From contig JBHLLO010000044.1 in NCBI GenBank assembly GCA_048885535.1, positions 1 to 23,558 on the forward strand: DNA of 23,558 nucleotides, written 5' to 3'. Both the position numbers and the translations under genes were made by a program. The first letter of the stretch is position 1. The number at the start of each line of letters is the position of its first letter. This DNA comes from Candidatus Hermodarchaeota archaeon (lineage in GTDB: Archaea > Asgardarchaeota > Lokiarchaeia > Sigyniarchaeales > SOKP01). Below are positions 6,368 to 22,581 of this stretch, piece after piece. The notes under the pieces were generated by a model that ran no database searches, was not told where the DNA came from, and worked only from the letters and a program-made list of their open reading frames with translations.

Positions 6368-8281
6368 TCAATAGATTTCAAAATCTTTTATCGTAAAATT
6401 CTTCTTGATTTTTTTCATAATAGGAAATAAGCTTAAATAAGTTAGTAAGAGCAGTACAATGAATAATACTCCCATTAATATAAATGGAATTGAAATGTTA
6501 GGTAAATAAACTCTTTCAAAAAGGATAATTGAATTTAAGATCATACTTAATCCTAAACTTAGAATGATTGATGGAATTAACACATAAAGTGTTTCTAAAA
6601 ATAGTATCCTCTTAATAAAGCGAAACTTTGAACCAATTGCTCTCATAATTAAGAAATCCTTTGCTTTTTCAATAACTCCTCCTTTATTGTAATTATAAAG
6701 TGAAAGAGCGAAAATTATAGTCATAACAATTACTAAAGATAGAGGGTATAATGAAAGAGTAGTAATATAATCTAGATTTTGCTTAAAGATAACATTGAGA
6801 TCAATATATGTAAATTCAGATCCAAGACTATTGTTAATAATCGTTTCTAAATCCAAAATTAAAGTATCATAAGCCTGTTCTTTATACTCTAATAACACTA
6901 AGTTAAGTATTTGGTTTGGAAAATTTAATTCTTCTCTAAAAATTTCAATATCTATATAACCGCAATAACCACTATAAAAACAGTCTATGACAATACCAGA
7001 AATATGAAAAATATGGTTTAAATCTTCTATTAACATTCCTTGATTAAGAGCGTAATCAAAAAAATTATATGCCAAACCATCCCCTATAACCATATAATCA
7101 AAGGAATCATTTGCAGTGAAAAAACTACCTTCAATTTCAAAATTCTGAACTAGCCTTGTAGAATTTAAACCGACTATAGGAAAATTACCTGTTCTTTGCT
7201 GCCCTATAAGTTCATATCCTCCATCCTCATAATATATATATCCGTCTAGTTCTTCAACATTGGCAAAACCGATTAATCGCTCGTCAATTCTATTGATGCT
7301 AGTTAAATTGTATATCTCTTCTAGATCAGTTGAATTAAATAGATATTTATTGTCTAAAAAATCGATGTTACTCGATTCAACAAGAACATTGGGATTTGAG
7401 AACATATTGTACATCAACGTGTAATTATATAATACATGTTTATGGCCAATAACGATAATTTTATTACCCTGTGACTTATTGATCCATTCTCTTGCTGATG
7501 AACCTAGAACTGAAATTCCTAAAGTTAATGTTAATATAATTAGAGAAAGTGTTGAAAATACAATAAAATAACGTTTAAACTCACCCTTTCTTCTAATTGT
7601 ATTTAATAAAGATATTTTGAAATTGAACCCAATTCTCGACAACCATCTGGGAATAGTTGACAAGCGTTTTTTAGCATCATAATCATAAGGAATTTCTTTA
7701 GAAAAACTTTTAACAATTTTCTGATTACCAAACTTCCTTAATATATAACCAGGGACAACAAATATACCTAATAAACATGAAAAAAATAAAATTGGTAAGT
7801 AAAAGTAATCAATATGAAAATAGAATGAAGCACCAAAGGAAGTTAAGATTAAAGCAAAGATAGCAAAAGAAAATATTCCAACTAAAAAACCAATACCAAA
7901 TCCTAATAAAAAAATTATATACGTTTCAACTAAATAAAATCCATACAATTTTCTAGGAACAGAACCTAATGCTCTCATGATTCCAATATCTCGCTTTTTT
8001 GATATGATTAAGGTACAACTTATAATTATAACAAGGATGAGTGCTATTATCATCATTAAAATCACAATGAGCAAACTAAAATTAGTATAGATGAAACTAA
8101 TACCCCCTGAGAAGAAATAGGGATTATTAAATTCATAAACAATAAATATATTCAATCCAGTAGAGGTTGTAAAGTAAATTAGAAAAGTTGTTGTGGCTAT
8201 TATTAAAATTATCATGATTAAATATTGAAGGGAGATGTCTCTCTTTCGGTAAAAATCCTTTAGAGCAAAATCAACTGATAT
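6368..8281 (-). CDS. FtsX/MacB-like ABC transporter permease; start proposed at ATA 8281
   Basis: Two FtsX-type TM modules (KKRDIGIMRALG and KAKDFLIMRAIG). The frame extends upstream of ATG 8215 as (M)SVDFALKDFYRKRD, a typical FtsX amphipathic N-helix. GAGGTG SD at 8289-8294 lies 7 nt before the ATA. In-frame stop at 8285-8287. Confidence 0.88.
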   Translation of the reverse strand: MSVDFALKDFYRKRDISLQYLIMIILIIATTTFLIYFTTSTGLNIFIVYEFNNPYFFSGGISFIYTNFSLLIVILMMIIALILVIIISCTLIISKKRDIGIMRALGSVPRKLYGFYLVETYIIFLLGFGIGFLVGIFSFAIFALILTSFGASFYFHIDYFYLPILFFSCLLGIFVVPGYILRKFGNQKIVKSFSKEIPYDYDAKKRLSTIPRWLSRIGFNFKISLLNTIRRKGEFKRYFIVFSTLSLIILTLTLGISVLGSSAREWINKSQGNKIIVIGHKHVLYNYTLMYNMFSNPNVLVESSNIDFLDNKYLFNSTDLEEIYNLTSINRIDERLIGFANVEELDGYIYYEDGGYELIGQQRTGNFPIVGLNSTRLVQNFEIEGSFFTANDSFDYMVIGDGLAYNFFDYALNQGMLIEDLNHIFHISGIVIDCFYSGYCGYIDIEIFREELNFPNQILNLVLLEYKEQAYDTLILDLETIINNSLGSEFTYIDLNVIFKQNLDYITTLSLYPLSLVIVMTIIFALSLYNYNKGGVIEKAKDFLIMRAIGSKFRFIKRILFLETLYVLIPSIILSLGLSMILNSIILFERVYLPNISIPFILMGVLFIVLLLLTYLSLFPIMKKIKKNFTIKDFEIY

Positions 8282-9584: not shown

Positions 9585-10220
9585 ATGGATTTTGAGAAAT
9601 TAACCGAGCTAATTATAGAGTTGGAATTCGATGATATTGCTGATGCTGTTAAAGAAGCTCTAGAAGTAGATGGTAAAGATCCATTTGAAGTTTTAAATGC
9701 ATTAACAAAAGGGATGGATGAAGTGGGGCGAAGGTATGAAGAGAAAGAGTATTATTTAACAGAATTAGTTTTAGCTGGAGAAACTATGAAAGAAGCATTT
9801 AAAATACTTCAACCTGCATTAGCCGCTACAGATAAATCAAGGGAGAAAGTTAAAGTGATACTAGCAACTGTGAAAGGTGATAATCATGATATAGGAAAAA
9901 ATATATTAGCTTCACTTTTACTAAGTTCTGGTTTTGAAATATATGATTTAGGTATGGATATAGATGAAAGTAAAATAATTGAAAAGGTAAAAGAAACAGG
10001 GGCAACTATAATAGGTTTAAGTTCACTCTTAACGATGACAGTAGATCAAATTAAAGTAGTTCATGAAGCATTAAAGACTGCAGGCTTACGTGAAAAAGTG
10101 AAACTTATAGTTGGTGGAGCTCCGTTAAACATGGAACTTGCTAAAAGTCTTGGTGCTGATGATTTTGCCGATGATGCAGTATCTGGAGTAAAACATATTA
10201 AGAAATTGGCTGGTATTTAA
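9585..10220 (+). CDS. Corrinoid (B12-binding) methyl-carrier protein, MtaC/MttC-like
   Basis: Cap domain (GMDEVGRRYEEKEYYLTELVLAG) plus DxHxxG motif (GDNHDIGKN), SSLLT and IVGGAP. Confidence 0.93.
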   Translation: MDFEKLTELIIELEFDDIADAVKEALEVDGKDPFEVLNALTKGMDEVGRRYEEKEYYLTELVLAGETMKEAFKILQPALAATDKSREKVKVILATVKGDNHDIGKNILASLLLSSGFEIYDLGMDIDESKIIEKVKETGATIIGLSSLLTMTVDQIKVVHEALKTAGLREKVKLIVGGAPLNMELAKSLGADDFADDAVSGVKHIKKLAGI

Positions 10221-10423
10221 AATAACTTCTTTAAACTCCCTTTTTACTCTTATTTCTACTGAGTACTATGATTAGTTTCTTAATAATTTATATTTTATAA
10301 AGTGTTTTATTTGCGACATTAATTTCAGTTTATTCTTATTACTCTTTTCTACTAAATTATAATGTGAATATTTAATTCTGTTTTAAATTGTTTATATATT
10401 GAATTCAAAAATAGTTTAAAGAA

Positions 10424-10678
10424 GTGATAATAGATTTGACAAAGGAAGTTAAATACGATCATGAATTGGATACTAGAGGTTTGTATTGCCCCGAACCTTT
10501 ATTTGAAGTTAGAAATTTTTCAGAATCTCTGGAAGCGGGAGAATGTTTTAAGGTATTAGCAGATGATCCAGCAGCAGAAGAGGATTTAAAAAGATGGGCA
10601 AAAAGAACTGACACTGAGTTAGTTGAGTTTCATAAGGATGGAGAAGATTTAATTTTTTATTTTAAGAAAAAGAAATAG
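10424..10678 (+). CDS. tusA: TusA/SirA-family sulfurtransferase (true start may be TTG 10436)
   Basis: LDTRGLYCPEP (CPxP) and VLADDPAAEEDL. Confidence 0.92.
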   Translation: MIIDLTKEVKYDHELDTRGLYCPEPLFEVRNFSESLEAGECFKVLADDPAAEEDLKRWAKRTDTELVEFHKDGEDLIFYFKKKK

Positions 10679-10690
10679 GAGGTTAAAAGT

Positions 10691-11050
10691 ATGGAAGAAA
10701 AACATATATTATATGTACAAACCACAGACACCCCCGAAAGGCAGTACTCCCCTTTAGTTTTAGCACAATCTGCTAAAGCCATGAACATTAAACCAACATT
10801 ATATTATTTAGGAATGGGATTGAAGATTTTAAAACCTGGAGTAGCTGAAATGATAAAATTAGGAACATTTCCTAGTGTAAAAGAAATGATTGACAAAACT
10901 CTAGAGATGGGGATTGAAATTTTAGTATGTGAGGCTTCTAAAAGGATGTTAGGATGGGATAAAGTTGAATTAATTCCCGGAGTAAAAATCGTTGGGGCTG
11001 CGACATTAAACGATTTAGTACTTGAAGCAGATGCCACTCAGTGGTTTTAA
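10691..11050 (+). CDS. DsrE/DsrF-like sulfur-relay protein
   Basis: DsrE pattern (PLVLAQSAKAM...YYLGMG...ILVCEAS...IVGAATL) with the conserved Cys. GGAGGT SD upstream. Confidence 0.85.
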   Translation: MEEKHILYVQTTDTPERQYSPLVLAQSAKAMNIKPTLYYLGMGLKILKPGVAEMIKLGTFPSVKEMIDKTLEMGIEILVCEASKRMLGWDKVELIPGVKIVGAATLNDLVLEADATQWF

Positions 11051-11107
11051 ACCATAAAAACTTTTAAGAAGATATTACATTATTGAATAATCAGGAGGTT
11101 AATATAT

Positions 11108-12286
11108 TTGAATGTATATTTAGACAATCAAGCAGCAAGACCCGTAGATGAGAGAGTTATTTCAGAAATGTTACCATACTTCAAAGAAAAATTCGCGAAT
11201 CCTGCCTCTTTACATGTTGATGGCGATATAGCTACAGAGATTTTAGAAAAATCAAGAAGGAAAGTTGCTGATTTTATAAATACCCCAGATGCGTCTAACA
11301 TTGTCTTTACTTCAGGAGCCACAGAATCAAATAATCTAGCATTAATAGGTGCTGCGAATTTTTATAAAAGGAAGGGAAATCATATAATTATTTCCGAGAT
11401 AGAGCATATCTCAATATTAAATATCGCTAAATATCTTGAAAAAGAAGGCTTTAAAGTAGATCGTGTTCCAGTTGATAGATTTGGAATTATCAGACTTGAT
11501 AAGTTAGAGAAATTAATTAGTGAGAATACAATAATTATCTCGATTGCTACAGCTAGTAATGAAGTTGGTTCAATTCAACCAATTGAAGAAATTAGTAAAA
11601 TTGCACATGATAGAAACATTCTATTCCATACTGATGCAGTGTCAAGTCAAAGTGTTGTTCCTATTAATGTTGAAGAAATACCTATAGATTTAATAACTTT
11701 AAGCTCTAATGACATTTATGGTCCGAAAGGTGTTGGGGCATTGTATCTTAGAAAGGGAGTCAGAGTAAATCCTGTTATTATTGGAGGGGGTCAAGAAAGA
11801 GGGTTTCGCTCTGGATCAGAAAATATTCCTGGAATTGTAGGATTTGCTAAAGCTGCTGAAATTATGAAAAGAGAGATGCCTAAAGAAGTTGTCTATCTAA
11901 AGAATTTAAGAGACAAATTAATTGAAAATATATTAAATACAATACCCAAATCTTATTTAAATGGTCATCCAGAAAAAAGATTAGCTCATAATGCTCACTT
12001 TAGATTTGATTATATTGAAGGAGAATCTCTGATCTTAGAATTAAAAGGTCATAATATTGCTGCTGCTACAGGTTCTGCTTGTTCTTCCAAAACTCTAGAA
12101 CCATCACATACTCTGATTGCGATGGGGTTGCTTCATGAGGAAGCTCATGGTAGTTTGTTATTAACGTTAGGAAGAACTACAATGGAATCAGATATCAATG
12201 ATTTAATCAAAAATTTACCCGGTGCTGTTAATAGATTGAGAATGATGTCTCCTTTAACTCCTCCTGAATTATTAAAACAAATTTAA
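11108..12286 (+). CDS. iscS: IscS/NifS-family cysteine desulfurase homolog with the PLP-lysine replaced by Asp
   Basis: VYLDN, FTSGATESNN, EH, HTDAV, GGGQERGFRSG and GSACSS (catalytic Cys325). The usual SSHKxYGPKG motif reads SSNDIYGPKG. Confidence 0.92.
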   Translation: MNVYLDNQAARPVDERVISEMLPYFKEKFANPASLHVDGDIATEILEKSRRKVADFINTPDASNIVFTSGATESNNLALIGAANFYKRKGNHIIISEIEHISILNIAKYLEKEGFKVDRVPVDRFGIIRLDKLEKLISENTIIISIATASNEVGSIQPIEEISKIAHDRNILFHTDAVSSQSVVPINVEEIPIDLITLSSNDIYGPKGVGALYLRKGVRVNPVIIGGGQERGFRSGSENIPGIVGFAKAAEIMKREMPKEVVYLKNLRDKLIENILNTIPKSYLNGHPEKRLAHNAHFRFDYIEGESLILELKGHNIAAATGSACSSKTLEPSHTLIAMGLLHEEAHGSLLLTLGRTTMESDINDLIKNLPGAVNRLRMMSPLTPPELLKQI

Positions 12287-12302
12287 AAGGTGAAACTTAA
12301 AA

Positions 12303-13094
12303 ATGAAATCAACTCAATATTCGGAAAAAGTTTTAGATCATTTTAGAAATCCAAGAAATGTTGGTGTAATCGAAAATCCAGATGGTTATGGAAAAGTAGG
12401 AAATCCAGTATGTGGGGATCTTATGGAAATCTTTATTAAAGTGAAAAAAGATGAAAATGGGGAAGATATTATCGAAGACATTAAATTTAGAACTTTTGGT
12501 TGCGGCTCTGCTGTTGCCACATCTTCAATGGTAACTGAAATGGCAATGGGTATGAAAATTGATGATGCTTACAAGATTACTAGAAGTGATGTGGCTGACG
12601 AATTAGAAGGATTACCACCAATTAAAATGCATTGTTCAAATTTAGCTGCGGACGCTTTAAAAGCAGCTATAGACAATTATAGATTAGGTACTACTTCTGA
12701 GGTTGAAGTCGCAACTTCCTGTAGTGTGCCTGATGTCAAGATTATTCTTGGTTTGGAGGATTTCATAGGAAAAGGTGTTTATAGAGAAATAAATGACTTA
12801 TTTAAGTTCAAGGATAAAAGAGTATTAATAATTGATACAGGGGATAAAGCTCTTGAACTTGCATTAGAATTAACAAAATTTACTGGCAGAGTAATAGTGT
12901 TAACTTCAGCTCAAAACACACCTGGATCAGAAGAATTGAAGAAAAAGTTAAAACTTTCAGATATTAAAATACTCTACCAATCGGAATTGCTTGAAGTAAA
13001 AGGAACAGATGAAGTTGAAAAAGTTATTGTGCATGATCTTGATGAAAATGAGAATTATGAACTATTCATAGATTCCATAGTTTATTTGGAATAA
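12303..13094 (+). CDS. iscU: IscU/NifU Fe-S scaffold fused to a C-terminal thioredoxin-reductase-like Rossmann domain
   Basis: YSEKVLDHFRNPRN, GNPVCGD, FGCGSA and LPPIKMHCS give all three scaffold Cys. Residues ~147-263 resemble the TrxB NADPH domain (GLEDFIGKGV...KDKRVLII..GDKALELALEL). Confidence 0.92.
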   Translation: MKSTQYSEKVLDHFRNPRNVGVIENPDGYGKVGNPVCGDLMEIFIKVKKDENGEDIIEDIKFRTFGCGSAVATSSMVTEMAMGMKIDDAYKITRSDVADELEGLPPIKMHCSNLAADALKAAIDNYRLGTTSEVEVATSCSVPDVKIILGLEDFIGKGVYREINDLFKFKDKRVLIIDTGDKALELALELTKFTGRVIVLTSAQNTPGSEELKKKLKLSDIKILYQSELLEVKGTDEVEKVIVHDLDENENYELFIDSIVYLE

Positions 13095-13096
13095 AC

Positions 13097-13145
13097 TAGG
13101 TTTTTTTTAATTTTTTTAAATTTCTTAATATTTTTTCTTATTTTT
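13097..13145. terminator. Oligo-T terminator tract between convergent genes
   Basis: Several T6-T8 runs directly follow the iscU stop codon. Confidence 0.5.
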
Positions 13146-13745
13146 TTATTCCTTATCAAAAATTATTAAATAGTCTGAACCAATTTCTTGAATGGATGCC
13201 GGATTGAAATTTGAAAAGAATTTATAAGTATCTTCTTCTTTTTCAAACCAATTCATCCTTTCCTCATAGGGATTAATTCCATCATTGTCTCCTATGATTT
13301 TATCATATATTTTAAATAAGAGGTAAATAAGTCTATTATTTACATTAACAATCGCAGATTTTGACTCTAAAACAATAACCATTTTTGCTTTTTCCTTAGC
13401 TCTGGTTAATAATTCTACATGATTTGGCATTACATGGTGAAGCAAATCTGACATCACGATCACATCAACAGCTGGATAATCTTCAAAATCAAAAACACTT
13501 TTACATCTAGTATTAATGTTTTTTGTGCTACCTACAAATTGTTCATTTAAATCCCATCCTTCATATTCACATGATTTATCTAAAAATCTATATAACTGCC
13601 CCGTACCACAACCTAAGTCTAAAACTTTTTTATTTTTACCAATAATCTTAGAGATTAGCTTGAATCTTAAAATGTAGTTCTTTCCATGAATGATTCTAAG
13701 GAAAAAGTCGTATAATTTTGGAGAAAGATACATAATTGACTTCAT
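13146..13745 (-). CDS. Class I SAM-dependent methyltransferase
   Basis: Motif I VLDLGCGTG, acidic motif II GWD, and DVIVMSDLLHH. Confidence 0.9.
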   Translation of the reverse strand: MKSIMYLSPKLYDFFLRIIHGKNYILRFKLISKIIGKNKKVLDLGCGTGQLYRFLDKSCEYEGWDLNEQFVGSTKNINTRCKSVFDFEDYPAVDVIVMSDLLHHVMPNHVELLTRAKEKAKMVIVLESKSAIVNVNNRLIYLLFKIYDKIIGDNDGINPYEERMNWFEKEEDTYKFFSNFNPASIQEIGSDYLIIFDKE

Positions 13746-13985: not shown

Positions 13986-14576
13986 ATGAAAGAAACTGCT
14001 AAAAAATTATTTACTGCTTATGTTGGTGAATCTCAAGCAAGAAATAGATATACATTTTTCTCAAAAATAGCTAAAAAAGATGGATACGTATTAATTTCAA
14101 AAATTTTTGAGGAAACCGCTGATCAAGAAAGAGAACACGGATCTTGGTTCTATAAGATGCTCCAGGGGTTCAAGAAAGAGGAAAAGTTTGATGAAATGAA
14201 AGTATTACCTGATGCAAAGTTCCCTACGACCCACGGAACTACTATTGATAATTTAAAGTCTGCGATTGCAGGAGAAAATATGGAATGGCAAACTTTATAT
14301 CCAGACATAGCTGAAACTGCTGAAAAAGAAGGATATCCTGAAATAGCTAAAAGGGTCCGCGCTATTATTAAAGCTGAGAAACATCACTCAGAACGATATG
14401 ATAAGCTTCTTAAGTTAGTTGGCGATGATCTGTTCTTTAAGCGTGGAAAAAAAGTAGTATGGGTATGTATGGAGTGTGGATATGAAGTAGAAATGGATCA
14501 TCTTCCTGATGACTTTAAATGTCCATCGTGTGATCATCCTAGATCATATTATAGGAAAAAATGTGAGGATTTTTAA
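13986..14576 (+). CDS. rbr: Rubrerythrin
   Basis: GESQARNRY, EREH, GENME and EKHH di-iron ligands, plus a C-terminal CMECG...CPSC rubredoxin-like domain. Confidence 0.95.
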   Translation: MKETAKKLFTAYVGESQARNRYTFFSKIAKKDGYVLISKIFEETADQEREHGSWFYKMLQGFKKEEKFDEMKVLPDAKFPTTHGTTIDNLKSAIAGENMEWQTLYPDIAETAEKEGYPEIAKRVRAIIKAEKHHSERYDKLLKLVGDDLFFKRGKKVVWVCMECGYEVEMDHLPDDFKCPSCDHPRSYYRKKCEDF

Positions 14577-14612
14577 TTTAATTACCTTCAAAAATAATGA
14601 ATTTAGCGTGAA

Positions 14613-15011
14613 ATGCAAATGAATAGGAAAGAAATTTATAAGTGTAATGTTTGTGGAAAGGTTGTTGAAATTCTTAATCCCGGTGTTCCAAAAACTATCT
14701 GTTGTGGAGAACAAATGAATTTAATGGCTCCACAATGGAAAGAATGGAAAACTGAAAAGCATGTTCCAAAGATTACCATCGAGGGAAATAAAGTCACTGT
14801 TGATGTTGGAATCTCAATGGGTACACCCCATCCAATGACTGAAGAGCATTGGATAATGTGGATTGAAGTTATCTGTAAAGATGGGTGCTATGAAAGGAGA
14901 TTCTTAAATCCTGGAGATAAACCAAAAGCTACTTTTACTTTTGCAAACCCAGAGGGTTTAATCGCAAGAGAATATTGCAATCTTCATGGATTATGGATTT
15001 CTGAAAAGTAA
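14613..15011 (+). CDS. dfx: Desulfoferrodoxin (2Fe superoxide reductase)
   Basis: N-terminal CNVCG...CCG desulforedoxin centre and the SOR ligands EKHVP, HPMTEEH and CNLHG. Confidence 0.95.
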   Translation: MQMNRKEIYKCNVCGKVVEILNPGVPKTICCGEQMNLMAPQWKEWKTEKHVPKITIEGNKVTVDVGISMGTPHPMTEEHWIMWIEVICKDGCYERRFLNPGDKPKATFTFANPEGLIAREYCNLHGLWISEK

Positions 15012-15932: not shown

Positions 15933-17111
15933 TTATTCTCTTTTTTTTCCTAAGAAGGGCATAGCATGCTCATATCTTTTCATTACAAATCTAGAAATTA
16001 CAATCCTTTGAATTTCACTAGTACCTTCATAGATTTGATAAAGTTTAGCATCTCTAAATAGTTTTTCAACAGGATAAGTTCTTAAGTATCCATATCCTCC
16101 AAAAATTTGAATTGCTTCTGTAGTTACATTCATAGCTACATCTGAAGCAAATGCTTTTGCAATTGAAGAGCTTAAATTATTGTCTAATCCTTGATCTGCT
16201 TCCCACGCGGCTTTATAGGTCAATAGACGAGCTGCTTCTATATCTTTGAACATGTTAGCAATCTTTTCTTGAATTACTTGGTAATTCCCAATAGGTCGCC
16301 CAAAAGCTTCTCTTTTTTGAGCATAATCTATCGAATATTCCATAGCAGAACGAGCGCAACCAACTGCAAATGCTCCAATAGCAGGTCGTGTATGGGCAAA
16401 AGTTTGCATCGCTAAAACAAAACCTCTCCCTGGTTTTGCTAAAACATTTTTTTTAGGAATCCGTACATTTTTCAAACCAACTGAGACTGTGTTAGATGAT
16501 TTTTGACCTAATTTGGGAATATGCTTCCCCAATCTTACACCTTCACTTTTAGTATCTACAATAAAAGCACATATCCCCTTGTGTTTAGTTTCAGGATCAA
16601 TTGTAGCAAATATAGTAATATAATCTGCATATCCTCCATTAGTCACCCAAAATTTATTACCGTTTAAGATATACTCGTCTCCCTCCTTTTCAGCAATACA
16701 TTTCATTCCTGCAACATCAGATCCCATTGTTGGTTCGGAGGTGGCAAACGCAATTAACTTAAACTCTTTGGTTAATTCAGTTAATATTCTTTGCTTTTGT
16801 TCTTCATTTCCCCCAATAATAATTGGTTCTGCCCCAAGATTATTATCAAAAATAGAAGTAGCTATACCAGGACAAGCGGAAGAAATTTCCTCTACTACTA
16901 TACAGGAATCTAATAATCCATAAGCAGGACCACCGTATTGTTTTGGAATTGCTAGATTTAATAAACCTTGTTCCCAAGCTTTTTTAATAACTGGTAAAGG
17001 AAATTCTTCTGAGTCATCATATTTCATTGCAACTGGTAAAACTTCCTGAATTGCAAATTCTCGTGCTTTTTTTTGAAGTGTTTTTTGAGCATCTGATAAC
17101 TTAAAATCCAA
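15933..17111 (-). CDS. Acyl-CoA dehydrogenase (short-chain/butyryl-CoA type); start at TTG 17111
   Basis: SEPTMGSD, LNGNKFWVTNG, REAFGRPI, QIFGGYGY and IYEGTSEIQR. GGAGG SD lies 7 nt before TTG 17111, giving the typical MDFKLS N-terminus. Confidence 0.94.
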   Translation of the reverse strand: MDFKLSDAQKTLQKKAREFAIQEVLPVAMKYDDSEEFPLPVIKKAWEQGLLNLAIPKQYGGPAYGLLDSCIVVEEISSACPGIATSIFDNNLGAEPIIIGGNEEQKQRILTELTKEFKLIAFATSEPTMGSDVAGMKCIAEKEGDEYILNGNKFWVTNGGYADYITIFATIDPETKHKGICAFIVDTKSEGVRLGKHIPKLGQKSSNTVSVGLKNVRIPKKNVLAKPGRGFVLAMQTFAHTRPAIGAFAVGCARSAMEYSIDYAQKREAFGRPIGNYQVIQEKIANMFKDIEAARLLTYKAAWEADQGLDNNLSSSIAKAFASDVAMNVTTEAIQIFGGYGYLRTYPVEKLFRDAKLYQIYEGTSEIQRIVISRFVMKRYEHAMPFLGKKRE

Positions 17112-18345
17112 TTCTTTCCCTCCTTTTACCCATTTTTTCAACTAATTTATCTACTATATCTTCGAAATCTAAATCCTCTGGTTTGGGAACGAATTTAACC
17201 TCAATCTTTTGTTCCATAACGTCAATCCCTGTTGCTTCTAATTCTTTTATTATTTCTTTTACTGCCCCACCACCCCATCCATAGGATCCAAAGGCCATTC
17301 CTATTTTATTCATTGGTTTCAATCCTCTTTGATAACTTAAATATTCCGCAACTAAGGGATAAAGACCATTATTTAAGGTTGGGCTTCCCACTAAAATAGC
17401 GTTAGCTTTCATCGCTTCTGTAATAACATCAGAATAATCTGCATTAGTTAATCTATATCTTTTAACACGAATTCCTCTATGGCTAATCTCTTTATATAAT
17501 GCTTGTGCTATCTTCTCTGTACTACCCCACATGGTATCATATACAATCAATACACTTTTTCCATCAATTAATCCCGCTGACCATTTCTTATAAGCCTCAA
17601 CTATCTTTGCTATATAAGTTCTCCAGCAGATACCGTGAGAAGGACAGATTATATCAATAGGTAGAGAACCTACTTTCGGTAGCGCTTTTGCTATCAGTCC
17701 TGATAAGTGAAGTAATATATTTGCATAATATTTCTCAGCTTCCCACATGATCTCAGAGAGATCATTTTCATCGTCCCATCTTTTTGAGGTGGCAAAGTGT
17801 TGCCCAAAAGCATCGTTTGAGAAAAGCACATTTTGGCCATTATCGTCTGTCATGAAAGATACCATAGAATCTGGCCAATGAATCATAGGAATTGGTACAA
17901 ATGTAAATTTCTTGCCATTCCCAATATCTAATGTATCTCCTTCTTTCACAGCTCTAATTTTATTAAATATATCCTTCTTAACTTCTTCATGGAAGTGCAT
18001 CTCCAGATTTTCTTTTCCCCGTTGAGATGCAATTATTTCTGCGTTAGGAAGATATTTCAAAATTAAGGGAAATGAACCCGAATGATCTGGTTCCACATGA
18101 TTTACAATAAAATAATTAATCTCACTAGGATTGCAAACATTTTTTATGTTTTCTAAGAAATGCTCGAAATAAGGACGCTTAACAGTATCAATTAATACTG
18201 TTTTTTCCCCAGATTTAACAATGTAAGCATTATAAGAAGAACCTTTATGAGTTGAGTACCCATGGAAATTTCTGACTTCAAAATCAATATATCCCACAAA
18301 AAATACATCCTTCATTAATTCTAAATGTGTCAAAATTCTGTTCAC
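17101..18345 (-). CDS. fprA: Flavodiiron protein (FprA; O2/NO reductase)
   Basis: MBL di-iron ligands NHVEPDH, HWPDSM, SNDAFG and PSHG, plus a flavodoxin domain (YDTMWGST, GSPT, FGSYGWGG). Confidence 0.95.
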   Translation of the reverse strand: MNRILTHLELMKDVFFVGYIDFEVRNFHGYSTHKGSSYNAYIVKSGEKTVLIDTVKRPYFEHFLENIKNVCNPSEINYFIVNHVEPDHSGSFPLILKYLPNAEIIASQRGKENLEMHFHEEVKKDIFNKIRAVKEGDTLDIGNGKKFTFVPIPMIHWPDSMVSFMTDDNGQNVLFSNDAFGQHFATSKRWDDENDLSEIMWEAEKYYANILLHLSGLIAKALPKVGSLPIDIICPSHGICWRTYIAKIVEAYKKWSAGLIDGKSVLIVYDTMWGSTEKIAQALYKEISHRGIRVKRYRLTNADYSDVITEAMKANAILVGSPTLNNGLYPLVAEYLSYQRGLKPMNKIGMAFGSYGWGGGAVKEIIKELEATGIDVMEQKIEVKFVPKPEDLDFEDIVDKLVEKMGKRRERIGF

Positions 18346-19115: not shown

Positions 19116-20462
19116 CTACACCTCCTTTTTAATAAATTCATCTTTAGAACCGCTACATCCAACACATTTAAAATCATCAGATAGGTCCTTAAAGAGCACC
19201 TGCATCTCGGCCTCATCGTATTCCCATCCACAACTAGGGCATTGCCATACATATAATTCGAGCATTTTTTTCACTTCTTCCTTATTTATTGCTTTCTCCA
19301 TATTTTGGCTTACATAATTGATATTTTTGGTCTCGCCAAATAAAATAGCGCCTTTTATTTTATTATCTTTTAATACGATTTTTTGATAACAACAATCTTT
19401 CTTATCAGCTTTTTTTAATATTTCCCATCCTCCTCCGTGTTCTTCAGGAGGACTAAATTGCCCTATTGAAGTTAGATTTATTCCAATAACTTTCAAGGTA
19501 TTTTTTGGAATAGTACCCACATATTCTTTCTTTTTATCACCTAGAATACGAGATGCAAGGATCTTTGATTGTTCAACGCAAGCAGGGATAATACCATATA
19601 TTTGGTTATTATATTCTATACAATCTCCTACAGCAAAAACATTATCCATACTTGTCTCTAAAAATTGATTTACGATAATGCCTTTATTGGTTTCAATTCC
19701 TACTTCTTTCGCAATATCGATTGTTGGATTTATCCCTGCCTGGATTAGAACTAACTCACTTTTTAAAATAGTTCCGTCTTTTAATTTTATCCCCAGCACT
19801 CCATCATTTACTAAAATCTCCTCCGTTACTGCTCCTAGAACTACCTTTATACCCATCTTTTCAATTTCATCTTTTAACATATCTCCACATTCTGTATCTA
19901 ACTGTCGTGGTAAAAGGCGAGGAAAGAATTCTACAACTGTTGTATCAAGGTTACAATTTTTAATTTGACGTGCTAATTCTAATCCGAGCAATCCTCCGCC
20001 AATGATAATGGCTTTTTCTATATGTTCTTCTTTTATGAATTTTCTTATATTTAGAGCATCATCAATAGACCTTAAAGTAAAAACTCCCCTTTCAATCATG
20101 TTGGAAGCATTTTTAATAGAAGGAGGAATATTAGGAACACTACCTAAAGCAAGAACCAACTTATCATAAGATACTGGTGTTTTTTCGCCTTCAATAATTA
20201 CTTTTTTCTCATTAGGCTTAATTTGGACTACTTTTTTTCCTAAATAGGTTTTAATATTATTATTTTTATACCAATCCTCTTTATATACAATTAATTTATC
20301 AATAGAGGTTTTTTCAGAAATAAGTTCAGGAATCTTTATTCTCCAATAATAAGGATATTTTTCATGGGAATAAATATCAATATCAACTTCTTTATCTGAA
20401 TTTCTAATATTTTGAGCTGTGAATATTCCAGATATCCCATTTCCAACAATGACAATTTTCAT
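19116..20462 (-). CDS. NAD(P)H:rubredoxin oxidoreductase (NirB/NROR-like FAD protein) with a fused C-terminal rubredoxin domain
   Basis: GNGISG FAD motif, GGGLLGLE NADH motif, AVGDC, and C-terminal WQCPSCGWEYDE...FKCVGC. Confidence 0.92.
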   Translation of the reverse strand: MKIVIVGNGISGIFTAQNIRNSDKEVDIDIYSHEKYPYYWRIKIPELISEKTSIDKLIVYKEDWYKNNNIKTYLGKKVVQIKPNEKKVIIEGEKTPVSYDKLVLALGSVPNIPPSIKNASNMIERGVFTLRSIDDALNIRKFIKEEHIEKAIIIGGGLLGLELARQIKNCNLDTTVVEFFPRLLPRQLDTECGDMLKDEIEKMGIKVVLGAVTEEILVNDGVLGIKLKDGTILKSELVLIQAGINPTIDIAKEVGIETNKGIIVNQFLETSMDNVFAVGDCIEYNNQIYGIIPACVEQSKILASRILGDKKKEYVGTIPKNTLKVIGINLTSIGQFSPPEEHGGGWEILKKADKKDCCYQKIVLKDNKIKGAILFGETKNINYVSQNMEKAINKEEVKKMLELYVWQCPSCGWEYDEAEMQVLFKDLSDDFKCVGCSGSKDEFIKKEV

Positions 20463-20676: not shown

Positions 20677-22581
20677 ATGGAAGGAGAAAGATTATCTTAT
20701 CATAAATCAGTTCAAAAAGTATATGAACGCATTAAAAAGGATGGAATGACGAATATTTGGGATCGTTTTGAAGCCCAAGGTTTTGGGGGGGTTCCTGATA
20801 AAAGATGTCCATTTTGTTTAAAAGGTGCTCGTTGTGATTTATGTTCTAATGGTCCTTGTCGTGCTGACGCATCAATAGATAAACGAGGTGTTTGCGGTAT
20901 TACTGCTGACGGAATGGCTATGAGAATGATGCTACTTAGAAATGTCATGGGTGCTTCTACTTATCATTATCATACTGAAACAACCTTGAAAACATTAAAA
21001 GCTACAGTTGAGGGGAAAACACCTTTTAAAATAAGTGAACCAGAAAAGCTAAAAAGTTTTGCTAACCGTCTTGGAATTGACATTACTGGGGATCTAAACG
21101 ATATCGCATTAAAATTATTTGATTTTGTCAGAGAAGACTATAATCGTTCTTATACTGAGCCCAGTAAAGTTGTAGAAGCCTTAGCACCAAAAGAAAGAAA
21201 AGAAGCATGGAGAAAATTAGGTATTTTTCCTGGTGGTCTTTATGGAGAAATGATGTTTTCTACGAGTTCCTGTTTAACTAATGTTGATGGCTATTATGCT
21301 AGCCTTGCCTTAAAAGCAATGCGCTTAGGAATAGCAATGGCATATCAAAGCCAAATAGTAAACGAATTTGTTCAAGATATCTTATTCAACATTCCTAGGC
21401 CTCATAAAATGCGCGTAAATTTAGGAGTTCTAGATCCTGATTATGTAAATGTTTTACCTAATGGTCATGAACCATTTTTAGGATTTGCTATGGTGCAACT
21501 CGCGCGAAAACCTGAATGGCAAGAGAAGGCTAGAGCAGTAGGAGCAAAGGGACTAAGAATCATAGCTAATATAGAAACTGGACAAGAAATGATCCAAAGA
21601 TGGGAAATGGATGACGTATTTTTTGGCTTCACTGGAAATTGGATAATGCAGGAAGCTGTCTTAGCAAGTGGATGTATTGATGCATTTGTATGCGATATGA
21701 ATTGTTGTATGCCTATTGACCCATTATATGCGAAAAAATACAAATTCAAATTAGTACCTGTATCTGAAGTGGTGGTTTTTGAAGGAATTGATGAACGAGT
21801 CGATTATATACCAGAAAAAGGAGAGGAGCAAGCAGCAAAGCTACTTCAAATGGCAATCGACAACTTTAAGGAACGACGTGCGAGTATTGAACCTATTAAA
21901 GAACTCGATATGAGTGAGGCAGTAGTTGGATTTTCAACAGAAAGCATAGTGGAAGCGTTAGGAGGTACACTTGATCTATTATTAAATGCCATAAAAGATG
22001 GAACAATAAGAGGAGTTGCTGGATTAATTTCTTGTACAACCCTCCGTGATTATGGTCAAGATGTGCATACAGTTGATATCGCAAAAGAATTGATAAAAAG
22101 GGATGTTTTAGTGTTATCAATGGGTTGTGGAAATGGCGGGGTTCAAGTCGCAGGTTTATGCTTACCTGAAGCGAAGGAGCTGGCTGGACCAGGACTTAAG
22201 AATCTTTGTGAAAAACTTGGTATCCCTCCTGTTTTAAGTTATGGAACGTGTACCGATACAGGGCGGGTAGCAGATCTGATTGCCGCAGTTTCAAATGCTT
22301 TAGGCGGAGTTCCAATCCCTGATTTGCCTGTGGTGGCCGTAGCTCCAGAATACATGGAACAGAAGGCAACTATAGATGCGATATTTGCGCTAGCCTTTGG
22401 ACTATATACTTACGTTAATCCCGTGCCCACAGTAACTGGAGGACCCGATTTAGTCAAACTTTTGACAGTAGATTGCAAAGATCTAACAGGGGGCATATTA
22501 CATGTTGAAACAGATACTAAAGAGGCTGTGGATGCCATGCTAAACCATATTGAAGACAATAGAAAAAAGTTAGGAATATAA
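20677..22581 (+). CDS. cooS: Anaerobic CO dehydrogenase family protein (CooS), divergent CooS-V/clade-D-like variant
   Basis: B-cluster CDLCSNGPC...GVCG. C-cluster ligand motifs NGHEP, DMNC, SCTT, GCG and GTCTD, and catalytic EQKA. The GxCCTG motif is replaced by NIETG. Confidence 0.92.
   Translation: MEGERLSYHKSVQKVYERIKKDGMTNIWDRFEAQGFGGVPDKRCPFCLKGARCDLCSNGPCRADASIDKRGVCGITADGMAMRMMLLRNVMGASTYHYHTETTLKTLKATVEGKTPFKISEPEKLKSFANRLGIDITGDLNDIALKLFDFVREDYNRSYTEPSKVVEALAPKERKEAWRKLGIFPGGLYGEMMFSTSSCLTNVDGYYASLALKAMRLGIAMAYQSQIVNEFVQDILFNIPRPHKMRVNLGVLDPDYVNVLPNGHEPFLGFAMVQLARKPEWQEKARAVGAKGLRIIANIETGQEMIQRWEMDDVFFGFTGNWIMQEAVLASGCIDAFVCDMNCCMPIDPLYAKKYKFKLVPVSEVVVFEGIDERVDYIPEKGEEQAAKLLQMAIDNFKERRASIEPIKELDMSEAVVGFSTESIVEALGGTLDLLLNAIKDGTIRGVAGLISCTTLRDYGQDVHTVDIAKELIKRDVLVLSMGCGNGGVQVAGLCLPEAKELAGPGLKNLCEKLGIPPVLSYGTCTDTGRVADLIAAVSNALGGVPIPDLPVVAVAPEYMEQKATIDAIFALAFGLYTYVNPVPTVTGGPDLVKLLTVDCKDLTGGILHVETDTKEAVDAMLNHIEDNRKKLGI

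Follow-up and report, generated by a model that had tools for sequence, protein, structure and literature searches.

How an iron–sulfur (Fe-S) assembly platform obtains its sulfur when its cysteine desulfurase has lost the catalytic lysine is the question raised by the operon tusA-dsrE-iscS-iscU of the Candidatus Hermodarchaeota archaeon assembly GCA_048885535.1. The operon is located on contig JBHLLO010000044.1 (C44), which was analyzed over its full length of 23,558 bp, referred to here as the window, and which belongs to a genome of 3.09 Mb in 112 contigs that is 91.6% complete; its closest public relatives were found to be metagenome-assembled genomes (MAGs) of Promethearchaeota (Asgard archaea). 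The four open reading frames (ORFs) lie at 10424-13094, all on the forward strand and with intergenic gaps of 12, 57 and 16 nt, and they encode two putative persulfide carriers, an IscS without its pyridoxal 5'-phosphate (PLP) lysine and an IscU scaffold with an extra C-terminal domain. The source of sulfur without an active desulfurase is an acknowledged open question (PMC8918507, PMC7585200, PMC13066941), and the conserved operon of a Lys-less IscS clade with two carriers names concrete candidate donors, in a set of four small soluble proteins that makes the question testable. The answer preferred here, to which a probability of about 0.55 was assigned, is a MIS-type Fe-S platform in which IscS is structural and donates a cysteine, and to which TusA would deliver the sulfur in persulfide form, DsrE being an optional second carrier.

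The iscS product was assigned to the class-V aminotransferase fold with an IscS/NifS-type sequence (Pfam Aminotran_5, 3.6e-75). Its NCBIfam scores were 467 bits for NifS and 411 bits for IscS, under the equivalog cut-offs of 531 and 643, respectively, and it met the subfamily model NF002806 (312.8 vs 304). The motif SSNDIYGPKG occupies residues 199-208, with N201-D202 at the place where the motif S[GA]HK has H-K, and the loop Cys325 (GSAC325SSK) is kept and invariant in 43 sequences. The best solved match was Archaeoglobus fulgidus IscS2 (4eb5/4eb7/4hvk), aligned end-to-end over residues 3-383 with an E value of 7e-132 and identical in the motif SSNDIYGPKG; a deposited A. fulgidus variant, 4r5f, reads SSNK. 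The preliminary description of this DNA had claimed an IscS without the PLP lysine but with the mobile-loop Cys, and the same Lys-to-Asp change as in A. fulgidus IscS, and both claims were confirmed, the second by alignment to 4eb5_A. The A. fulgidus protein has been described with Asp199 at the Lys position, pyridoxamine 5'-phosphate bound and no desulfurase activity, and was proposed to be a scaffold partner only, giving one Cys ligand to the [2Fe-2S] cluster of IscU; the sulfur source of that cluster was termed an open question, with free sulfide as the hypothesis (PMC8918507, PMC7585200). The window IscS is a close relative of this biochemically inactive IscS2 and, by analogy, may be inactive as well. 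Across the sequences compared, the D202 column was found to hold K in 37/37 Lys-type and D, E or S in 104/104 non-Lys sequences, and just four alignment columns divide the two types (T11 to K/R, G71 to A, H201 to N and K202 to D/E/S).

The association of the carrier genes with this form of IscS was evaluated at 140 genome loci (139 distinct IscS sequences; loci are numbered with L), comprising the best 80 of 124 relatives, 20 lower-identity second hits and 40 hits from other Asgard families. The source search covered 151 evenly drawn Asgard genomes, with a match in 126; the second hits (L092-L111) and loci L112-L151 were hand-picked among the 150 matches listed, and 29 further matches exist. 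The residue aligned to D202 decided the IscS type, the operon copies supplied the profiles with which tusA and dsrE were searched for, ORFs were called naively, and flanking DNA was considered sufficient from 800 nt upstream for tusA/dsrE and from 900 nt downstream for IscU. Non-Lys IscS (D, E or S; n = 102, 94 with flanks) had tusA directly upstream on the same strand at 89/94 loci, dsrE in between at 51/94 and IscU adjacent at 89/94, with an extra-domain IscU at 79. Lys-type IscS (n = 37, 36 with upstream DNA) had tusA upstream at 0/36 loci and dsrE in between at none, with IscU adjacent at 18/35 and the extra domain at 0; a tusA-like ORF within 1.5 kb was found at two Lys-type loci, L130 and, on the other strand, L128. 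Similarly, when metagenomes were scanned with aligned D-type proteins of divergent sequence, 80 loci with 84 IscS ORFs were obtained (16 D, 62 K, 2 M, 2 L, 1 Q and 1 S). The D-type ORFs, at GC contents of 0.33-0.73, had tusA upstream in 13/13 cases with at least 500 nt upstream and dsrE in 8/16, whereas tusA or dsrE lay within 2 kb of 0/62 Lys-type ORFs, 52 of which have at least 500 nt upstream. The linkage of tusA/dsrE to the K-to-D iscS, on which the preliminary description had let its proposal stand or fall, was thus found to be conserved and specific (89/94 and 13/13 vs 0/36 and 0/52).

The two persulfide carriers that had been claimed, a TusA with CPxP and a DsrE with its Cys, were likewise borne out by Pfam and by the motifs C22-P-E-P and Cys80. 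TusA matched Pfam TusA (PF01206) at 6e-19, with 68.1 bits vs a cut-off of 28.6, its closest solved structures were those of E. coli TusA (1dcj and 3lvj_C, ~5e-10), and D16, G19, C22, P23, P25, D48, P49 and D54 were invariant in 43 operon-linked homologues. With 51.3 bits vs 78, it fell below the E. coli equivalog cut-off of NCBIfam NF001423, and the window protein is a TusA-family member and not the E. coli equivalog. DsrE matched Pfam DsrE (3.5e-13, 50.2 bits vs a cut-off of 22.7) and DrsE_2 (1.1e-14), and its nearest solved relative was the Sulfolobus DsrE/DsrF-like protein 3mc3_A (1.4e-10), to the Cys of which Cys80 is aligned. This cysteine sits in LVCEAS, the VCEAS block of which showed at least 98% identity in 36 sequences; with the DsrE2 model (NF047629), the protein stayed far below the equivalog cut-off (33.7 bits vs 210). 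IscU matched Pfam NifU_N (1.2e-46) and Pyr_redox (5.2e-5), its scaffold scored 192.9 with TIGR03419 (cut-off 187.9), and archaeal IscU 7c8m_A (2.9e-56) and A. fulgidus IscU 4eb5_C (4.8e-46) were matched, with the ligands C37, D39, C67, H110 and C111 invariant in 68 IscU sequences. Gene content, motifs, fold, conservation and the type-specific linkage are all direct observations.

The spread of the module was followed beyond the Asgard archaea. A metagenome locus of GC 0.71 (L156) carries tusA, dsrE, an iscS of the D type and an IscU with the extra domain; among the 120 best homologues of its IscS, 118 read SSND and 2 SAND, and those with names come from Actinomycetota MAGs (Thermoleophilia, Solirubrobacteraceae, Actinomycetes). 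Together with a locus from a Nitrospinota MAG (L080), these homologues indicate that the module is not confined to Asgard archaea, and with 120/120 of them reading SSND or SAND, many proteins annotated as 'cysteine desulfurase' probably are not. In a FastTree phylogeny of 137 IscS sequences (after removal of 2 with a length under 370 aa), all 100 non-Lys tips grouped in one clade with a support of 0.951, its sister was the Asgard Lys-type paralogue group (parent support 0.995), and the D clade stayed one group in a 210-tip tree with metagenome sequences. A separate Lys-less clade, with a support of 1.0, consists of L215 (M), L185 (Q) and L221 (S), the first two with the order iscS-iscU-dsrE-tusA and the third on a contig that ends 563 nt past iscS. 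Since the non-Lys clade is monophyletic, the high counts amount to a single ancestral arrangement that has been deeply conserved, together with one independent repeat.

The mechanism that would connect these observations starts from an IscS that could no longer make persulfide from cysteine because of the Lys-to-Asp and His-to-Asn replacements. IscS and IscU would form the assembly platform, with IscS lending its loop Cys325 as in A. fulgidus IscS2-IscU, and sulfane sulfur would be brought by the presumably co-transcribed carriers, TusA with its Cys22 and, at loci that have it, DsrE with its Cys80, to be handed to IscS-Cys325 and/or IscU. Two candidate sources may be named. The Lys-type IscS paralogue of most relatives could load TusA, in which case cysteine would be the sulfur source; alternatively, environmental or metabolic sulfane sulfur could be processed by an enzyme of the composition CoA-disulfide reductase (CoADR)-rhodanese-TusA-rhodanese. 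A protein of ~795 aa with Pyr_redox_2, two rhodanese domains and TusA was found within 3 kb downstream at 30 of the 94 non-Lys loci that extend 900 nt or more past the operon, among them the closest relatives L009 (6792-9176) and L010. Its flavoprotein part is CoADR-like, and the enzyme may serve to load the carriers or to unload them. No orthologue of this fusion was found in the genome of the window, the best match being a 448-aa rubredoxin-reductase-like gene at 19116-20462 (-) of the window.

Several points weigh against the preferred reading. The E. coli relay, in which IscS passes sulfur on to TusA, runs opposite to the proposal (PMC2854127, PMC11302665). The Lys-type locus L130 has the order iscS-iscU-tusA-dsrE, so carrier linkage is not exclusive to Lys-less forms; conversely, 5/94 non-Lys loci are without upstream tusA (L124, L129, L135, L136 and L081, the last with dsrE only), dsrE is dispensable in about half of the non-Lys loci, and several Asgard families are without the extra IscU domain. 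Lys-less IscS of the bacterial type also occurs without tusA (L176, L182 and L203); they fall within the bacterial IscS clade and appear to have lost the PLP lysine in yet another, separate event. The counts themselves are conserved synteny of essentially one origin plus one small clade, not dozens of events. The locus sets are partly hand-chosen, the ORF calling is naive, and the Asgard-trained tusA/dsrE profiles could overlook divergent carriers beside Lys-type genes. Binding, the direction of transfer, the source of sulfur and the role of the extra domain are what we infer from the patterns above, and a prediction of the IscS and TusA complex, run without controls, scored 0.00 and is evidence neither way.

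Some observations on individual loci and genes may be added. At the three bacterial-type loci L176, L182 and L203 (GC 0.68-0.70), Leu or Met stands at the PLP-lysine position, with a plain IscU adjacent. In L141 and L142 (Asgard family f3, genomes of 1.3-1.4 Mb), IscS reads SANS and has a shifted loop Cys (GASCASL), with tusA-dsrE still ahead of it and a plain IscU after. Two loci from MAGs titled Deferrimicrobium (L079) and Nanopelagicaceae (L083), with 61% and 79% identity to the window IscS, respectively, and the full Asgard-type operon, are probably mis-binned Asgard contigs. A selenium reading, prompted by a weak match to NCBIfam YedF, was dropped; PMC11097638 deals with other genes. The genome holds three further TusA-like genes (C13:44183-46688, C13:53823-54062 and C36:1504-2113, C denoting its contigs); by eye, one of the copies is followed by three DsrEFH-like small ORFs and an Hdr-like Cys-rich protein, one comes after an 822-aa flavoprotein and one lies beside a 119-aa DsrE-like ORF.

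The features of the operon are collected in Table 1. The layout of four co-oriented and closely spaced genes stood as previously described, and of the Shine-Dalgarno (SD)-like sites attributed to them, those of dsrE, iscS and iscU were recovered and that of tusA was not. An SD-like AGGAGGT lies 7-8 nt ahead of the dsrE and iscS starts, the one before dsrE (10677-10683) overlapping the tusA stop codon, and AAGGTGA lies 9 nt ahead of the iscU start; unlike in these three genes, no SD-like site was seen before tusA. The TATA-like element TTTATATATT is a candidate archaeal promoter, which would give a leaderless or short-leader transcript, and the oligo-T tracts after iscU are a candidate archaeal terminator, the next gene past the operon (13146-13745) being convergent. 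A search for sequencing runs gave eleven of the DNA type, from sediment or mangrove samples of 4 studies, and none with RNA. Upstream, 203 nt from tusA, the window encodes a B12-binding two-domain protein (9585-10220, +), a homologue of which was found on the same strand within 2 kb at 42/89 non-Lys loci with at least 2 kb upstream. Downstream lie genes of oxygen, reactive oxygen species and nitric oxide defence (13986-15011, 17101-18345 (-), 19116-20462 (-) and 20677-22581), a cluster that comprises rubrerythrin, desulfoferrodoxin, a flavodiiron-type protein (ODP and flavodoxin), a rubredoxin-reductase-like flavoprotein and a hybrid-cluster (prismane) protein; this neighbourhood was not seen in the close relatives with listed ORFs (L009, L010, L012, L014, L020 and L042). 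CdhD, the delta subunit of CO dehydrogenase/acetyl-CoA synthase (1.1e-74), is encoded at the contig start (130-1101, +).

Table 1. Coordinates of the operon and its signals in the window.
Feature	Position	Strand	Description
TATA-like element TTTATATATT	10391..10400	+	~28 nt upstream of the tusA GTG; read from the sequence
tusA	10424..10678	+	84 aa; TusA-family persulfide carrier; C22-P-E-P; GTG start
dsrE	10691..11050	+	119 aa; DsrE family; single cysteine, Cys80
iscS/misS paralogue	11108..12286	+	392 aa; PLP lysine replaced; mobile-loop Cys325 kept
iscU	12303..13094	+	263 aa; scaffold, linker and C-terminal extra domain
IscU/MisU scaffold domain	12303..12692	+	Residues 1-130; ligands C37, D39, C67, H110, C111
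Flexible linker of IscU	12696..12740	+	Residues 132-146; Cys140 codon at 12720-12722
IscU C-terminal domain	12741..13094	+	Residues 147-263; NAD(P)H-binding-domain fold of thioredoxin reductase (TrxR) / TrxR-type ferredoxin:NADP reductase (FNR)
Two oligo-T tracts (T8, T7)	13101..13117	+	Just past the iscU stop; read from the sequence

A more far-reaching proposal is a widespread, desulfurase-independent Fe-S route, in which sulfane sulfur of environmental origin or from persulfide metabolism, and not cysteine, would pass through rhodanese/TusA enzymes, for example the CoADR-rhodanese-TusA-rhodanese protein, to TusA/DsrE, from there to the loop Cys of a dead IscS and on to IscU, with electrons from an FNR-like module or its remnant. 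It is entertained only tentatively. If true, many Asgard lineages and Actinomycetota would possess a new branch of the ISC/MIS family, set apart by its sulfur input, and the sulfur supply of the A. fulgidus-type IscS-IscU would be explained. As to whether the organism is free of cysteine desulfurase, a scan of its assembly with PF00266 (class-V) gave 8 matches including the D-type IscS, and a separate active desulfurase was largely rejected. One match, at 64259-65479 (-) of C1, is SepCysS (NCBIfam, 1.1e-144), and five are unrelated PLP enzymes, as judged by eye from their translations. The remaining one, a class-V enzyme truncated at the edge of C65 and encoded beside cysE/cysK (by eye), was set aside as an active desulfurase: its full-length orthologue in L090 (393 aa) has the Lys and, by eye, no Cys in the R-x-G region. 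This enzyme was found in 3/21 genomes searched, the present one included. With SepCysS and, by eye, the serine acetyltransferase and cysteine synthase genes at C65:742-2553, the organism may have two routes to cysteine.

A Lys-type IscS copy was not found in this 91.6%-complete assembly. A second IscS-type match was, on the other hand, present in 11/12 sampled genomes of the same genus, and all 20/20 second copies fetched (8 from the genus, 9 from the family and 3 from other families) were Lys-type, with S[AG]HK..GPKG and the Cys loop. Plain IscU was adjacent in 4/18 second copies with downstream DNA, and many of the copies lie within a few kb of a divergent SufB-like gene. The left neighbours of the relatives' Lys-type region map to contig C67 of the present genome, which has other genes there, and for the missing Lys-type copy loss and assembly gap are indistinguishable. 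With relatives that possess the copy, the term 'cysteine-independent', which the preliminary description had applied to the system, is therefore not established. SufB/SufD, found in 93/151 sampled Asgard genomes and in 9/12 sampled genomes of the same genus, were not found in the present assembly either, an absence that may reflect its 91.6% completeness. At C67:4668-5042 (-), a stand-alone IscU of 124 aa adjoins a 1006-aa ORF (a heavy-metal P-type ATPase by eye), and in the relative G109 (locus L093) a Lys-type IscS is close to the counterpart of this stand-alone IscU.

An alternative role for the module would be Fe-S storage, repair or sensing, for example under oxidative or sulfide stress, with TusA and DsrE regulating or protecting IscS-IscU instead of donating sulfur. 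The defence genes beside the window operon (rubrerythrin, desulfoferrodoxin, flavodiiron, rubredoxin-reductase-like and hybrid-cluster) agree with such a role, the Lys-type IscS and divergent SufB-like gene of the relatives could do housekeeping assembly, and E. coli TusA has been reported to influence Fe-S assembly and to compete with IscU for IscS (PMC11302665, PMC11302051). Nevertheless, it is judged unlikely: the stress neighbours are not conserved, the relatives L009, L010, L012, L014, L020 and L042 having CoADR-rhodanese-TusA as a large downstream ORF instead, and TusA and DsrE show little or no variation at their active-site cysteines, which fits sulfur chemistry over a purely steric regulator.

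The extra domain of IscU may bear on how sulfur brought by the carriers would be reduced. An AlphaFold2 model of IscU, built from a 68-sequence alignment, had a mean predicted local distance difference test score (pLDDT) of 82.6, with two confident domains joined by a linker (residues 132-146) of pLDDT below 50. With Foldseek, the N-domain was superposed on IscU structures (7c8m, 4eb5_C; TM-score normalised to the target of 0.82-0.92) and the C-domain on the NAD(P)H domain of 2zbw_B, 2q7v_B, 3f8d_C and 3lzw (probability 1.00, E ~1e-10), with a root-mean-square deviation of 1.9-5 Å over ~120-130 columns. NCBIfam TRX_reduct was matched at 3.1e-15, covering only model positions 106-230 of 300; no FAD-binding domain was found in the window IscU, which ends after the NADPH-type domain, and no CxxC was found in residues 131-263, where the sole Cys is C140 in the linker. 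The nucleotide loop reads DTGDKA where GxGxxA/G is expected, within a consensus D178-[ST]-G180-D181-x-[SA]. The designation of this part as reductase-like, of the TrxR kind, had therefore to be narrowed to an NADPH-domain fold with a degenerate nucleotide loop. The domain is strongly conserved, and linker Cys140 is present in 68/69 sequences. A word-indexed search with residues 131-263 returned 163 proteins, and most of the 120 listed are NifU_N proteins of 255-272 aa named only as 'NifU' scaffold; an exhaustive profile-free search gave stand-alone homologues of 107-200 aa, followed by proteins of ordinary TrxR length. As the Asgard families f3, f4 and f12 have the tusA-dsrE operon with a plain IscU, the extra domain is a later, lineage-restricted addition. 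In locus L123 (family f19), IscU and a complete Pyr_redox_2 flavoprotein (residues 143-431, E 3e-44) are fused in one protein of 448 aa (6900-8246), in which the loops read GGGPAG and GNGDQA and CxxC is again absent; in L122, both IscU parts are matched by an ORF of the same length, 448 aa. From these sequences, the window domain may be read as a truncated descendant of an FNR-like (TrxR-type ferredoxin:NADP reductase) module, and an FNR-like electron-supply module is a possible origin of the unannotated IscU fusion.

Within the carrier-fed platform preferred here, the intact FNR-like module of one Asgard family would supply the electrons that turn S(0) into cluster sulfide, and the NADPH-domain fold and linker Cys140 that remain in the window might serve in docking, as a relay cysteine or as a fourth ligand. 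That the extra domain is still a working NAD(P)H-binding module, passing electrons to the cluster site together with a separate flavoprotein, is regarded as improbable. Its fold is indeed that of an NADPH domain, the second loop Gly and the Ala/Ser are kept, T201-S-A-K follows strand 2, and both the full FNR-like fusion of family f19 and the stand-alone homologues of 107-200 aa are compatible with function; the first loop Gly, however, is Asp or Glu in 69/69 extra-domain sequences, position 181 is acidic (Asp or Glu) in 68/69, and with no FAD-binding part the domain cannot pass hydride alone. Two side observations concern the same genes. In L123, iscS and the IscU-flavoprotein fusion are separated by an ORF of 136 aa that belongs to no known family. 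Furthermore, IscU genes of 527-540 aa interrupted by inteins with a LAGLIDADG homing endonuclease were found at L135:6177-7760, L086:5163-6785 and in L088 (Pfam Intein_splicing and LAGLIDADG_3 in L135, LAGLIDADG_3 in L086).

The conventional direction, in which the IscS paralogue, or persulfide otherwise loaded on Cys325, would be the donor and TusA/DsrE would carry sulfur to tRNA thiolation, the molybdenum cofactor or other thio-cofactors with IscU as second acceptor, agrees with the E. coli relay from IscS to TusA (PMC2854127, PMC11302665), with E. coli TusA as the solved structure most similar to the window TusA, with the homology of DsrE to TusD (Pfam DsrE) and with PLP-site residues that are largely kept besides H-K (4 type-specific columns only), but it is held to be very improbable in view of a catalytic Lys replaced in 104/104 non-Lys sequences, an A. 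fulgidus orthologue without desulfurase activity (PMC8918507, PMC7585200), a Lys-type paralogue that is the sole plausible active desulfurase and has an adjacent tusA in 0/36 and 0/52 cases, and other genomic TusA copies, one beside DsrEFH-like ORFs (by eye), that could serve thiolation.

The combination of tusA, dsrE, Lys-less iscS and iscU had been put forward as undescribed, and a full-text literature search turned up no description of it, a passing mention in the founding MIS paper or a TusA review being possible. The sole full-text match joining TusA, DsrE, IscS, IscU and archaea was an unrelated Fervidobacterium study, and no mention of TusA or IscS was found in the Asgard genomics literature turned up by the same kind of search. 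In the 2026 review on Fe-S biogenesis (PMC13066941), DsrE does not occur and TusA occurs four times, at least once in the context of the E. coli ISC system. As the module is common in Asgard archaea, it is relevant to attempts to reconstruct how Fe-S clusters were made at the archaeal root of the eukaryotes.

Among the known systems, the E. coli relay IscS-TusA-TusBCD(-TusE-MnmA) shares with the window IscS, TusA and DsrE/TusD-like families and persulfide on conserved cysteines, and E. coli TusA docks on IscS (3lvj). In that relay, an active IscS is the donor, the genes lie apart and the product is thiolated tRNA, whereas in the window IscS is Lys-less, the carriers share an operon with IscU and the flow would be opposite. 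The DsrE3A-TusA system resembles the window in that a single-Cys DsrE-type protein is encoded beside TusA; transfer from DsrE3A to TusA was reported to be irreversible in Metallosphaera cuprina (PMC4175335), and DsrE proteins, TusA and rhodaneses were described to deliver sulfur to the sHdr consumer complex (PMC11094781). These DsrE3A-TusA/sHdr relays feed dissimilatory sulfur oxidation (Hdr-like complex, lipoate-binding proteins), whereas the neighbours in the window are IscS and IscU. TrxR and FNR (2zbw, 3lzw, 2q7v, 3f8d) share the fold of their NAD(P)H domain with the C-domain of the window IscU, and in the full-length fusion of L123 the loops for FAD and NAD(P)H are both present, whereas CxxC is absent as in the FNR type; the window version differs from them in that the whole FAD domain is missing and the first loop glycine is replaced by an acidic residue. 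SufE and SufU are small carriers that hand persulfide to the SufBCD scaffold, a role like that proposed for TusA and DsrE, although their folds are unrelated to those of TusA/DsrE and they are loaded by the active SufS of the same operon. The MIS system (MisS-MisU) is similar to the window in its two-gene iscS-iscU core without chaperones, ferredoxin or A-type carrier, and was described from archaea and anaerobes, with an unclear electron donor and with sulfide as a usable source (review PMC13066941); it is defined with a cysteine desulfurase, whereas in the window module the desulfurase Lys is missing and two persulfide carriers and an extra scaffold domain are added. The closest parallel in sequence is A. 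fulgidus IscS2-IscU, which has the same SSNDIYGPKG, likewise with Asp where the PLP Lys would stand, and which also shares the loop Cys and the ligands of IscU. The A. fulgidus IscU (153 aa) is without the C-terminal Rossmann-like domain that the window IscU has, and whereas free sulfide has been hypothesized in the literature to feed the A. fulgidus system, the proposal here is a relay of carriers.

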